A stretch of DNA of 34,056 nt from a virus (IMGVR_UViG_2703718832_000004), one strand, 5' to 3'. Counted from the stretch's first letter, positions 22,770 to 26,132 are shown. Program-made: numbers and translations. Notes: generated by a model not told the origin, from the sequence alone.

Positions 22770-23020
22770 TGAAAGAATACCGCTATTCCGGCCCGGCCAG
22801 CGGCGTCACGCTGTCGGACGGAACCGAAATACTGCTCTGGCCGGGGAAGAACGTTTCCCTGCCTGAGGAGCATGACTATGTGACGGTACTGGTGGCGCTG
22901 AAGCATCTGACGCCGGTACCTGAAGAAGCCAAACCCGCCAGCACACCGGCTGTGCAGTTACCAAAGCGTAAGAACGGTGGCGACAACGATGTGAAACCGG
23001 AGGACTCCAATGTCAGCTAA
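22766..23020 (+). CDS. small phage protein preceding tail sheath (Mu gp38-like position)
   Basis: 84 aa ORF, overlapping start/stop with neighbours. Confidence 0.45.
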   Translation: MMKEYRYSGPASGVTLSDGTEILLWPGKNVSLPEEHDYVTVLVALKHLTPVPEEAKPASTPAVQLPKRKNGGDNDVKPEDSNVS

Positions 23021-24437
23021 CTATCTGCACGGCGTCGAAACCATTGAAGTGGAAAACGGTGCCCGCCCGGTTAAGACGGTGAAATCTGCCGTTATTGGCC
23101 TGATTGGTACCGCCCCGATGGGGAACGTCAATACGCTGGTTCAGTGCCTGTCTGAGAAAGATGCCGCCGCGTTTGGTAGCCAGCTCACCGGTTTTACCAT
23201 TCCGCAGGCGCTGGATGCGATCTACGACCATGGTGCAGGCACCGTTCTGGTCATTAACGTTCTTGATCCGGCAGTGCATAAAACCGCTGTGGCCGATGAA
23301 GACGTAACGTTCGACAAGGCAACAGGTAAAGCCAGACTGGCCAACCCGGTGGTCGCGCAGCTGGTACTGAAACCGGACAGCGATGGTCAGCCTTATGTGG
23401 AGGGTCAGGACTACTCGCTTGATGCACAGACCGGGGTGATTACCAACCTTGGTAAGAGCATTGCCGCAGATGCAACGGTGAAGGCCAGCTATAACTATGC
23501 TGATCCAACCAAAGTCACCCCGGCTGATATCATTGGTGCCGTTAACACCGCAGGCAACCGAATCGGCATGAAGCTGCTTAACGACAGCTTCAACCTGTTT
23601 GGCTACTTCGCCAAAATTCTGATTTCCCCGGTATTCTGCACCCAGAACAGCGTCTCGGTTGAGCTTATCGCCATGGCTGAGAAGCTGGGCGCGGTGACTT
23701 ACATCGACGCGCCGATTGGTACCACTTTTGCGCAGGCTCTGGCGGGGCGTGGCCCGGAAGGCACCATTAACTTCAATACCAGCTCCGATCGCGTCCGTCT
23801 GTGCTACCCGCACGTCAAAGTATACGACGCGGCTACCAACAGCGAACGGCTGGAGCCACTGAGCCAGCGTGCTGCAGGTCTGCGTGCCAAGGTCGACCTG
23901 GACAAGGGCTACTGGTGGTCGTCCTCCAACCAGGAGATTCTCGGCATCACCGGTGTGGAGCGCCAGCTGTCGGCCATGATTGACGACCCGCAGAGTGAGG
24001 TGAACCTGCTCAACGAACAGGGCATCACTACGGTCTTCAGCAGCTACGGCAGCGGCCTGCGTCTGTGGGGCAACCGTATGGCGGCATGGCCAACGGTCAC
24101 CCATATGCGCAACTTTGAGAACGTTCGCCGTACCGGTGATGTGATCAACGAGTCCCTGCGTTACTTCAGCCAGCAGTACATCGACATGCCGATTACCCAG
24201 GCGCTGATTGATGCGCTGACGGAGTCGGTCAACGCCTACGGTCGCAAGCTGATTGGCGACGGTGCGCTGCTGGGCTTCAGCTGCTGGTTTGATCCGGCCC
24301 GCAACGAAGAGACGGAGCTTGCCGCCGGTCACCTGTTGCTGAGCTACAAATACACGCCACCACCACCGCTGGAGCGACTGACGTTTGAGACCGAGATCAC
24401 CTCGGAATACCTGTTAACCCTGAAGGGGAATAGCTGA
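23010..24437 (+). CDS. contractile tail sheath protein
   Basis: 475 aa, immediately upstream of the tube protein; size and order typical of Mu L / P2 FI. Confidence 0.75.
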   Translation: MSANYLHGVETIEVENGARPVKTVKSAVIGLIGTAPMGNVNTLVQCLSEKDAAAFGSQLTGFTIPQALDAIYDHGAGTVLVINVLDPAVHKTAVADEDVTFDKATGKARLANPVVAQLVLKPDSDGQPYVEGQDYSLDAQTGVITNLGKSIAADATVKASYNYADPTKVTPADIIGAVNTAGNRIGMKLLNDSFNLFGYFAKILISPVFCTQNSVSVELIAMAEKLGAVTYIDAPIGTTFAQALAGRGPEGTINFNTSSDRVRLCYPHVKVYDAATNSERLEPLSQRAAGLRAKVDLDKGYWWSSSNQEILGITGVERQLSAMIDDPQSEVNLLNEQGITTVFSSYGSGLRLWGNRMAAWPTVTHMRNFENVRRTGDVINESLRYFSQQYIDMPITQALIDALTESVNAYGRKLIGDGALLGFSCWFDPARNEETELAAGHLLLSYKYTPPPPLERLTFETEITSEYLLTLKGNS

Positions 24438-24958
24438 TGGCAAAGATTGAGATCAACCGCATCACGAATGCCAACATCTACCTGGATGGCGCTAACCTGC
24501 TGGGCCGGGCCGAGGAGGTCAAACTCCCGGACGTCTCCATGACAATGCAGGAGCATAAGGCGCTGGGGATGGTGGGCAAGGTGGAACTCCCGGCAGGCTT
24601 CGACAAGCTTGAGGGCGAGATCAAGTGGAACAGCTTTTACCGCGACGCGATGCTGTCTGCTGCGAACCCGTATAAGTCGCTGGCGCTGCAGTGTCGCTCC
24701 AGCGTCCAGCGCTACAGTTCGCAGGGGCTGATTGACGAAATCCCGCTGGTCACTTTCCTGACGATCATGTTCAAGAAGAACCCGCTGGGGACGTTCAAAC
24801 AGCACGAGAACGCCGAGTTCTCCAGTAGCTTCACCTGCACGTACATCAAGCAGGTACTGGATGGTGAAGAACTGCTGGAGCTGGACTATCTGGCCAACAT
24901 TTTCCGCGTCGGCGGCGTTGACCAGTTGACTGACTATCGGATTAATATCGGAGGGTAA
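24437..24958 (+). CDS. tail tube protein
   Basis: 173 aa immediately after the sheath; size and order typical of Mu M / P2 FII. Confidence 0.7.
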   Translation: MAKIEINRITNANIYLDGANLLGRAEEVKLPDVSMTMQEHKALGMVGKVELPAGFDKLEGEIKWNSFYRDAMLSAANPYKSLALQCRSSVQRYSSQGLIDEIPLVTFLTIMFKKNPLGTFKQHENAEFSSSFTCTYIKQVLDGEELLELDYLANIFRVGGVDQLTDYRINIGG

Positions 24959-24960
24959 TT

Positions 24961-25254
24961 ATGGTGGTACCCAAAGTTGAGCGCAAAACGATAGACGACC
25001 TGGTGGCGTCGCTGAGTTATCAGACCCACCACTTTCCGGGCACCACGCTGACAATTGCTGTCGCGCTGATGCCAGATGGCTTTATGGTCAGCAGTGGATT
25101 CAGCGCCACGGCGCATCCGGGTTTGTTCGATGAAGAGACCGGCAGGAAGGTGGCCATCGCTAAAGCGCAGCACAATGCGACTGAAGCGCTGTGGCAGTTT
25201 GAGGGGTACAGGCTGAAGTCCCAGCTGGCATCAGGGAACCACGATGACCGTTGA
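24961..25254 (+). CDS. hypothetical small protein between tube and tail chaperone
   Basis: 97 aa with GGAGGG RBS. Confidence 0.5.
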   Translation: MVVPKVERKTIDDLVASLSYQTHHFPGTTLTIAVALMPDGFMVSSGFSATAHPGLFDEETGRKVAIAKAQHNATEALWQFEGYRLKSQLASGNHDDR

Positions 25255-25525
25255 GATCGAAGATAAAGTCGGGAACTGTGGTTCGATTGGCATGGGGAAT
25301 GGCACCTGGTTTACCATCCTCGATATTCCGGGGGTGGAAAACCTTTTTAATACCCGTAAAACCAATGACCCGATTGACTGCACACGCTCTAAAGCACGAA
25401 AGCTCGCTGACCTGATTGAGGCATGGGAGCCACCTGACCACTGGTTCACCGGCATCGGCAAATCTGAAGGAAAGGCACTTCTTATCGCCTTCCTGCGTAA
25501 CTGCAAAGGCTTTCGCACTCGCTGA
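25244..25525 (+). CDS. hypothetical small protein between tube and tail chaperone
   Basis: 93 aa ORF, overlaps the upstream gene by 11 nt. Confidence 0.45.
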   Translation: MTVEIEDKVGNCGSIGMGNGTWFTILDIPGVENLFNTRKTNDPIDCTRSKARKLADLIEAWEPPDHWFTGIGKSEGKALLIAFLRNCKGFRTR

Positions 25526-25527
25526 CT

Positions 25528-25558
25528 CACAGGGGCTTCGGCCCCTTTCTTCTTAATC
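25528..25558 (+). terminator. intrinsic terminator-like hairpin (CACAGGGGC-TTCG-GCCCC followed by TTTCTTCTT)
   Basis: Seen directly: GC stem with TTCG tetraloop and T-rich tail, right after the stop of the 93-aa gene. Confidence 0.55.
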
Positions 25559-25622: not shown

Positions 25623-25937
25623 ATGTCACAGACCCAATCCGATACTTTTAAGCTGTCTTACCCCTTCACCACCGCAGCAGGCACCAGAGTTGAGCAGGTT
25701 GAACTGAAACGCCTAACGGTCAAAGACCTGAAGCAGGTGCGCAAAATCAGTAAAGACCCGGCGGACTGGGACGAGCCGCTGATTGCCCGTAGCACCGGTA
25801 TTCTCTCCGAAGACCTCGACAATATGGATCTTGCCGATTACATGGAGCTGCAGAAACGATTTCAGCAAGTCACTGGGCTGGGCAAAAGCGACGAAAACGC
25901 TGATGCAGGCGCAGGGTCTGCTGGCGAGGTGGTTTAG
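25623..25937 (+). CDS. tail assembly chaperone (P2 gpE / lambda G-like)
   Basis: 104 aa, acidic, between tube and tape measure; a +1-frame ORF extension overlaps its 3' end. Confidence 0.6.
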   Translation: MSQTQSDTFKLSYPFTTAAGTRVEQVELKRLTVKDLKQVRKISKDPADWDEPLIARSTGILSEDLDNMDLADYMELQKRFQQVTGLGKSDENADAGAGSAGEVV

Positions 25938-26040
25938 ATTTCAGCCGGGGGAGATTGATGCCCTCGATACTGACGATCTGGAGATGTGGCTGGAGCAGGC
26001 TGAAGAGCAAATCAAAAGCGAGTTCGGCGACAATCAGTAA
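25879..26040 (+). other. +1-frame extension of the tail chaperone (candidate programmed frameshift product)
   Basis: Frame +1 is open from inside the chaperone gene to 26040 and encodes ...FQPGEIDALDTDDLEMWLEQAEEQIKSEFGDNQ. The listed ORF begins on TTG and has no plausible independent start. Candidate shift site at the chaperone terminal GTT TAG (25932..25937). Confidence 0.45.
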
Positions 26041-26132
26041 CAACTCATCACTTAACAGCCGCCACTCGCGGCTGTTCTGCATGGCTCTCAGACATTTTCC
26101 TTCCGTTTTTCCGCTTTCAGAGGATAACCACC

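Follow-up and report, generated by a model that had tools for sequence, protein, structure and literature searches.

Introduction

Frameshifts in tail chaperone genes are -1, -2 or +1 in different phages (PMC5009743). Among the described systems, those closest to the locus analysed here are phages P2 and Mu, in which frameshifting is verified at the corresponding point of the gene and whose chaperones both fall in or near the Phage_TAC_7 family. The P2 pair, gpE and gpE+E' (91 and 142 amino acid residues), combines a TAC_7 domain with an E' domain (PF06528) and uses a -1 shift on the tandem-slippery heptamer T_TTT_TTG; in the GenBank annotation, P2 E' appears only as a -1 frameshift fusion to gpE. 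For Mu gp41, the Mu GenBank record and PMC2628397 describe a verified -2 frameshift. The phage lambda pair gpG/gpGT follows a shared logic, in which the short chaperone is abundant and a form extended at its C terminus is rare, both encoded just upstream of the tape measure gene, and is produced by a -1 shift at G_GGA_AAG.

A separate body of work concerns UUU_Y, a known +1 shift-prone site (Atkins et al. 2016, PMC5009743). In influenza PA-X the +1 shift takes place within UCC_UUU_CGU and the 5' codon contributes to its efficiency; more generally, the strength of E-site pairing modulates +1 shifting, and weak pairing favours +1 in RF2 (PMC5009743). The bacterial UUU_Y cases covered by the same review are error-type or uncertain events and none of them is a conserved phage programme (PMC5009743); in one of these, YopN-TyeA, mutagenesis gave no confirmation.

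Here we analyse a tail chaperone gene in a viral DNA stretch of 34,056 nucleotides (IMGVR_UViG_2703718832_000004), which as a whole is referred to as the window. An original prediction, made from the sequence of the window, held that this gene is overlapped by a conserved-looking extension in the +1 frame, reached by a +1 or -2 shift at the end of the chaperone gene.

Results

Gene context of the tail chaperone

The window carries a BcepMu-like (Bcepmuvirus-type) prophage with a P2-type contractile tail set in a transposable-phage backbone, in which it resembles Mu, and the locus under study lies in its late-gene, tail-module region. This region is 96% identical to Klebsiella phage KP12 and 96-97% identical to E. 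coli prophages, and matching prophages are present in 642 of 5426 complete E. coli genomes. PhiKM, a relative of the window prophage, is classified in Bcepmuvirus. The tail genes follow the order sheath, tube, two small inserted genes, chaperone, tape measure and homologues of gpU, X and gpD, which places the chaperone between the tube and tape measure genes, as in the P2-type chaperone pair. The features used below are as follows.

23010-24437, plus strand: tail sheath gene (PF04984/PF17482)
24437-24958, plus strand: tail tube gene (PF04985), whose product the E' domain presumably targets
25623-25937, plus strand: tail assembly chaperone gene, ORF of 104 amino acid residues (PF10109, Phage_TAC_7), the analogue of P2 gpE, Mu gp41 and lambda gpG
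25857-25863, plus strand: proposed +1 shift cassette CGA_UUU_C (conservation in +1 loci, bracketing stops)
25864-26040, plus strand: E' extension, 58 residues in the +1 frame (translation, phrog_8286, P2 E' profile match)
25879-25881, plus strand: near-invariant +1-frame TGG (Trp) (codon-position entropy)
25903-25905, plus strand: +1-frame ATG, the start of a 45-residue protein in PGAP annotation, probably no real start
25918-25959, plus strand: E' core motif LLARWFRFQPGEID in the +1 frame, straddling the frame-0 stop codon
26133-28598, plus strand: tape measure protein gene, ORF of 821 amino acid residues (PF10145, PhageMin_Tail); presumed partner of the chaperone

The two small genes between tube and chaperone are a member of the Gp49 / N4-Sf6 gene 66 family (PF13876) at 24961-25254 and a gene for a 93-residue hypothetical protein with a weak DUF7739 match at 25244-25525. 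The Gp49-like gene is missing in most close relatives: among the 20 best E. coli matches its region is covered by two only (H4 and H5), for which alone a Gp49 gene is listed, and the other 18 begin at query base 42 (window 25241). A strong terminator-like hairpin at 25531-25546, with a tail to 25556 (AGGGGCTTCGGCCCCT then TTCTTCTT), lies inside the late tail operon, between the 93-residue hypothetical gene and the chaperone gene, which suggests that the genes directly upstream are an inserted cassette with its own terminator. Another hairpin, of 9 bp, is found at 26054-26076 (AACAGCCGC-CACUC-GCGGCUGUU), 3' of the E' stop and 5' of the tape measure gene; it lacks a T-tract, and the fold z-score for the entire 105-nt spacer is -1.9.

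Frame 0 of the chaperone gene runs from ATG 25623 to TAG 25935-25937 and gives a product of 104 residues. The +1 frame is open from 25783, following a TGA at 25780-25782, to TAA 26038-26040, and the C-terminal end of this ORF reads ...MWLEQAEEQIKSEFGDNQ. The -1 frame is stopped at 25899-25901 and thus has no extension to offer. The geometry described in the original prediction, an extension that overlaps the chaperone in the +1 frame and continues to 26040, is therefore borne out by the window sequence.

The extension is a relative of P2 E'

The chaperone matches Phage_TAC_7 (PF10109) over residues 8-84 with E=6e-22 and 77.8 bits against a cut-off of 25, and carries the PGAP name 'phage tail assembly protein' in E. 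coli prophages of 96-97% identity. The +1-frame extension peptide (...LLARWFRFQPGEIDALDTDDLEMWLEQAEEQIKSEFGDNQ) ends in what would be the post-shift E' part, the 58 residues SKSLGWAKATKTLMQAQGLLARWFRFQPGEIDALDTDDLEMWLEQAEEQIKSEFGDNQ followed by TAA 26038-26040. This extension matches phrog_8286 with E=5e-32, a family that in PHROGs consists of stand-alone E' calls. In a profile-profile comparison with hhalign, P2 E' matched the profile of the extension family with a probability of 91% and E=1e-6. Of 17 family members, 8 are hit by the PF06528 model (best E=6e-6); with the window extension alone it gives E=0.009, below the gathering score. The E' core motif LLARWFRFQPGEID (25918-25959) aligns with P2 E' residues AVIFHWPPSELYPM. 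NCBIfam returned no match for either the fusion or E', and a sequence search of the PDB returned no relative. Judged by these profile comparisons, the +1-frame extension is homologous to the E' part of P2 gpE+E'; what had looked like a conserved tail in the window sequence is a conserved protein domain.

The window pair resembles the P2 pair in its domains, in its gene position with respect to tube and tape measure and in its size class (104/138 versus 91/142 residues). The P2 shift and the proposed window shift both fall at the end of the TAC_7 domain, no more than about 3-4 residues from the equivalent position. We considered exact equivalence of the P2 and window Phe codons and rejected it, as by Pfam coordinates they are about 3 residues apart and share only the same region. 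The two systems differ in mechanism: P2 uses a -1 shift on a tandem-slippery heptamer, whereas the window would use a +1 shift on CGA_UUU_C with re-pairing of one tRNA. Mu gp41 is similar to the window in having its chaperone gene upstream of the tape measure gene and its extension in the +1 frame, but its slip is a -2 on the G-run CGG_GGG_CGA, and the window family has no conserved G-run. Moreover, the Mu chaperone belongs to PF23746 with a weak TAC_7 match only, and the Mu extension is not E'-like. The Mu -2 frameshift was reportedly verified by Xu, Hendrix and Duda in 2004. Lambda G/T has no sequence similarity to the window pair, and its heptamer G_GGA_AAG is present here only in Pasteurellaceae relatives.

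Conservation of the +1 arrangement

Homologous loci were gathered with search patterns derived from both the chaperone and E', which makes the search blind to the frame relation between them. In the first set of 67 loci (58 genome loci, 8 phage records and the window), the frame of E' with respect to the chaperone is +1 in 62 cases, -1 in three and 0 in two. The +1 relation was also seen in 54 of 56 distinct sequences from a hold-out IMG/VR viral set and in all 31 distinct sequences from a GC-rich Burkholderia/Pseudomonas clade. Altogether, approximately 145 distinct loci, whose chaperones are as little as about 30% identical, keep the +1 geometry, and they range from Enterobacterales to phages of Burkholderia, Pseudomonas and Ralstonia. 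Isolated phages with the +1 relation and both ORFs intact include KP12, PhiKM, BcepMu, Komp_PAO1_1 and Bise, and the same holds for prophages of many genera. The original prediction had called for +1 or -2 recoding in place of the usual -1, and this is upheld by the maintenance of the +1 frame, the homology of the E' domain and the lack of a conserved start.

The three -1 loci (L008, L066 and L067) all come from Pasteurellaceae; they carry the heptamer G_GGA_AAG near the frame-0 stop and are without TTT_C. Since this heptamer is common to all three, the comparison with their +1 relatives indicates that the direction of frameshifting is switched within one protein family. Conventional -1 homologues had been named as a possible sign of a sequencing indel in the window. 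Such homologues exist in these three loci, but they form a separate lineage with a heptamer of its own and give no sign of an indel in the window.

The remaining frame exceptions are indels, a single-base one in L010, L011 and L069 and several in L139. In L010 (Apirhabdus apintestini CP138906.1, ~1715), one base is deleted 15 nt upstream of CGATTTC, turning CTGGAGCTGCAG into CTGGGCTGCAG and putting the chaperone in frame with E' as a fusion-only gene; either a mutation in a defective prophage or a misassembly may account for this. L011 and L069 each lack one base at CAGCCGGGGGAG. Variants shorter by one base recur at window 25947-25951, the G5 run in CCGGGGGAG, as in L011 (Erwinia tracheiphila), L069, L139 and database proteins P0003-P0007. 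They have the distal half of E' in frame 0 and thereby form an in-frame ORF of 138 residues that lacks LLARWFRFQP, and could represent homopolymer sequencing errors or a genuine sub-lineage. Natural in-frame fusions were considered as evidence for the junction and set aside as uninformative, their junctions lying at scattered homopolymer indels in database ORFs.

The annotation of phage BcepMu (AY539836, L004, 24602-25363) can be reread in this light. Here gp41 is the chaperone and gp42 the +1-frame E' ORF, with TCC_TTT_CGC at the site. In the GenBank record the part of the lambda G analogue is given to gp42 and that of its slippage product to gp43, a frame-0 ORF in GC-rich sequence; gp41 and gp42 are left unjoined. 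Our comparison supports gp41+gp42 as the probable frameshift pair, a fusion that is favoured because of its homology to P2 E/E'.

Position of the shift

Codon-position entropy was analysed in an ungapped set of 83 distinct sequences, and its pattern changes from frame 0 to +1 directly after the conserved Phe codon. The fifth and sixth codons after the site encode a conserved +1-frame Gly-Trp. The Trp residue of the +1-frame TGG at 25879-25881 has an entropy of 0.28, and the frame-0 residues over it vary (L/M/V/F/P/G, then G/A/D/V/S/R), always spelt NTG Gnn; in terms of the alignment, this TGG is the earliest clear sign of +1-frame translation. The pattern conserved in 47 aligned extension peptides is F-x4-G-W-..P..L..AQ.LLARWFRFQPSEID, and protein conservation in the +1 frame (G-W...P..L..AQ.LLARWF) starts at 25876-25881, about 55 nt upstream of the TAG.

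The frame-0 stop itself is variable in position. Counted from the conserved Phe codon it falls anywhere between +13 and +121 nt downstream, and in no case does it adjoin TTT. Most lineages have GTT CCG or GTT TCG where the window has GTT TAG, the codon in question being CCG or TCG in PhiKM, in Salmonella, Ralstonia and Pectobacterium prophages and in others. The E' core comes only after the frame-0 stop in Bise, L048-51 and L157-166. Stops in the two frames delimit the shift from both sides: the Ralstonia, Komp, Pandoraea and L159 groups have a +1-frame TGA 13 nt before the Phe codon ends, and in L157-L166 the frame-0 stop starts 19 nt downstream. In L159, L161 and L164 the bracket between the stops is 30 nt long (CCGACACCTTTCGCAGCATGGTGGACAAC), and within it TTT_C is the sole sequence that allows a tRNA to re-pair one base forward.

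The CGA_UUU_C motif

In the window, the motif is composed of CGA 25857-25859 (Arg79), UUU 25860-25862 (Phe80) and C 25863, the first base of the Gln81 codon CAG, and lies 72 nt upstream of the frame-0 TAG. TTT followed by C occupies the conserved Phe position in 59 of 60 loci of the first set, 54 of 54 of the hold-out set and 31 of 31 of the GC-rich clade, that is in 144 of 145 distinct +1 loci. The third-position entropy of TTT is 0 among the 83 sequences. The residue that follows Phe varies (Gln, His, Arg, Leu) and its codon always begins with C; the residue before Phe varies too. TTT_C is kept even in hosts with 56-65% G+C. TTT is rare in GC-rich hosts (0/12, 1/31, 3/22), and the background of TTT_C in the same loci is 6.3% of Phe contexts. 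When sequences were clustered at 70% identity, TTT_C was found in 13 of 14 clusters (binomial P ~3e-15), and at 50% identity in 6 of 7 (P ~4e-7). Where Arg precedes Phe, it is encoded by CGA in 52 of 53 cases (first set) and 53 of 54 (hold-out), compared with a background of 7-13%. In the GC-rich clade the codon before TTT is UCC, ACC, GCC, GUG or another; CGA is not universal and its role is therefore uncertain. Comparison of the overlap in related prophages, which had been proposed as a check for a conserved slippery sequence, thus points to CGA_UUU_C. Conservation of the TTT_C sequence could in principle serve some other purpose.

The single +1 locus without TTT_C is L064, from a Gallionellaceae MAG (~1712-1735), which reads TGT_CTT_CGG_GGG_CTT_ACC_TGA. 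Its CUU_C can slip +1, as CUU_U does in prfB, and adjoins CGG_GGG, the run of the Mu -2 shift.

No stimulatory RNA structure is conserved 3' of the site (-1.4 kcal/mol and no covariation in an alignment of 16 sequences); the window sequence alone folds into a modest hairpin there. Similarly, no SD-like stimulator 5' of the site is conserved among the relatives, and no X_XXY_YYZ heptamer is conserved among the +1 loci. A pausing element is not evident at the site, where the A-site codon CAG is common and there is no stop, SD-like sequence or conserved structure, and the efficiency of the slip may consequently be low. Transcriptional slippage was rejected as the run of three T is too short.

Weighing the alternative explanations

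We consider it quite likely that a +1 programmed frameshift at CGA_UUU_C is the best explanation of these observations, and the other explanations fare less well. One would dispense with recoding and have E' made as a separate small protein from ATG 25903: in near-identical E. coli prophages the region corresponding to 25903-26040 is annotated by PGAP as a 45-residue 'GpE family phage tail protein', and phrog_8286 is built of such stand-alone calls. Yet this ATG has no SD-like sequence, is shared by only 25 of 84 distinct relatives (others have ACG, ATA, TGG or CGT) and stands 24 nt downstream of the point where +1-frame conservation begins. In 16 of the 84 loci that stretch of the +1 frame has no ATG, GTG or TTG at all, and an SD-like tetramer of any kind is present in only 4. 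The homologous E' of P2 is made only as a frameshift fusion, and a separate start would leave both the invariant TTT_C and the CGA unexplained. Independent initiation at ATG 25903 was rejected on the grounds that it has no SD-like sequence and that the start is not conserved, and a separate E' protein is in our opinion distinctly unlikely. The original prediction that the +1 frame has no credible start is right insofar as no start is conserved or backed by an SD-like sequence, and needs correction in that ATG 25903 exists and is used by PGAP. The notion that the arrangement is an artefact or a product of decay, through a sequencing indel or a pseudogenised chaperone in a defective prophage, draws on the frame-changing indels in the few loci described above (L010, L011, L069 and L139) and on about 10 database ORFs 'fused' via scattered homopolymer indels; given the +1 relation with both ORFs intact in approximately 145 distinct sequences, from isolated phages and prophages alike, it is extremely improbable.

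Other explanations accept recoding and place it elsewhere. A stop-dependent +1 shift at GTT_TAG (25932-25937), similar to those of RF2 and antizyme, would add 34 residues to the 104-residue chaperone, and this was the site put forward in the original prediction, which had the stop codon occupying the A site. Stop codons so placed are classical stimulators of +1 shifts, and the window and its closest relatives do have a frame-0 stop inside the overlap. However, comparison of relatives refutes this site: the stop is absent from this position in most lineages and precedes the E' core in Bise, L048-51 and L157-166, the shift would leave out the conserved upstream E' residues GW...L..AQ.LLARWF, and tRNA-Val on GUU has no first-position re-pairing with UUU. 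We find a shift there hardly credible. The same frame might also be reached by a Mu-like -2 slip or by a +1 slip at AAA_A (25884-25887) or GAA_AAC (25893-25898). In support of such a route, Mu gp41 has a verified -2 shift on CGG_GGG_CGA, a tRNA-Lys could slip +1 on AAA_AGC in the window, and L064 has CGG_GGG adjoining its CTT_C. On the other hand, a conserved G-run or any other conserved -2-competent sequence is lacking, with CGG_GGG seen only in L064, and a -2 shift is unlikely because no codon in 25853-25878 is able to re-pair 2 nt upstream. Both specific +1 candidates were rejected: AAA_A is AAG_A in the nearest relatives, is absent elsewhere and lies downstream of the conserved +1-frame Trp, and GAA_AAC is not conserved as either a -2 or a +1 site. 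We hold all these routes to be very unlikely.

Proposed mechanism

According to the preferred explanation, a +1 shift at CGA_UUU_C, most ribosomes would translate frame 0 to TAG 25935 and release the 104-residue chaperone. A minority would slip by +1 with peptidyl-tRNA-Phe on UUU 25860-25862 and C 25863 as the next base, the tRNA-Phe being able to re-pair perfectly with UUC (25861-25863). Decoding would then resume at AGC 25864 in the +1 frame and proceed to TAA 26038. The predicted fusion, join(25623..25862,25864..26040), has 138 residues, in which chaperone residues 1-80 are followed by 58 E' residues, so that the last 24 chaperone residues are exchanged for 58 from the +1 frame. Its predicted junction is ...LQKRF/SKSLGW... 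(the slash marks the shift) and the predicted Glu-C peptide across this junction is LQKRFSKSLGWAKATKTLMQAQGLLARWFRFQPGE.

CGA is read only via an inosine-adenosine (I:A) wobble pair. The 5' CGA probably raises slippage, by weaker E-site pairing or by perturbed translocation. If the pair works like lambda gpG/gpGT and P2 gpE/gpE+E', the tape measure protein would be bound by both products and the tail tube protein recruited by the rare fusion through its E' part, and the rate of slippage would set the ratio of the two products that tail assembly needs. That slippage occurs, how efficient it is, what CGA contributes and what each product does are inferences.

Discussion

The proposed site has much in common with influenza PA-X and with UUU_Y sites in general: tRNA-Phe would move from UUU to UUC, a pyrimidine follows on the 3' side, neither a stop codon nor an RNA structure is needed, and the codon 5' of UUU would bear on efficiency. 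The BcepMu clade has UCC_UUU_CGC and UCU_UUU_CGU, which recall the PA-X cassette. A difference is that PA-X needs the host-rare codon CGU, whereas in the window family CAG, a common codon, mostly occupies the A site and the conservation lies on the 5' flank, in CGA. Tail chaperone frameshifts of -1, -2 (Mu) and +1 are on record, and a +1 extension is thus unusual and not new in kind. In the literature searched we found no description of the shift site of this chaperone/E' family, and an earlier description may exist.

Homologous chaperones appear to obtain their two products at essentially the same point of the gene in several ways: by -1 shifts in P2 (T_TTT_TTG) and Pasteurellaceae (G_GGA_AAG), by a -2 shift in Mu and by the proposed +1 shift. 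Selection appears to preserve the ratio of products and not the mechanism.

There is also a consequence for annotation. The locus is present in the 642 of 5426 complete E. coli genomes mentioned above and in many other Enterobacterales, where it is split into two genes, 'phage tail assembly protein' and 'GpE family phage tail protein', or its E' part is missed. A join at TTT_C would give the correct sequence of an essential tail protein.

On a broader proposition our judgement is evenly balanced: that evolution has maintained CGA_UUU_C (in GC-rich hosts, NNN_UUU_CGN) as a cassette dedicated to +1 programmed frameshifting, which works without a stop codon, SD-like sequence or RNA structure, with CGA acting as an E-site stimulator, and that it sets the chaperone ratio throughout a clade of BcepMu-like and P2-tailed phages and prophages of Gamma- and Betaproteobacteria. 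If the proposed shift is real, it would be a broadly conserved bacterial instance of minimal +1 programmed frameshifting on UUU_C, with no stop codon and no structure, and the conserved 5' CGA would make the contribution of the E site or of I:A wobble to +1 slippage, a matter of long discussion, testable by synonymous mutations in E. coli. Under the broader proposition, CGA_UUU_C would be the bacterial equivalent of the PA-X cassette of influenza and provide a natural model of minimal +1 frameshifting in E. coli.
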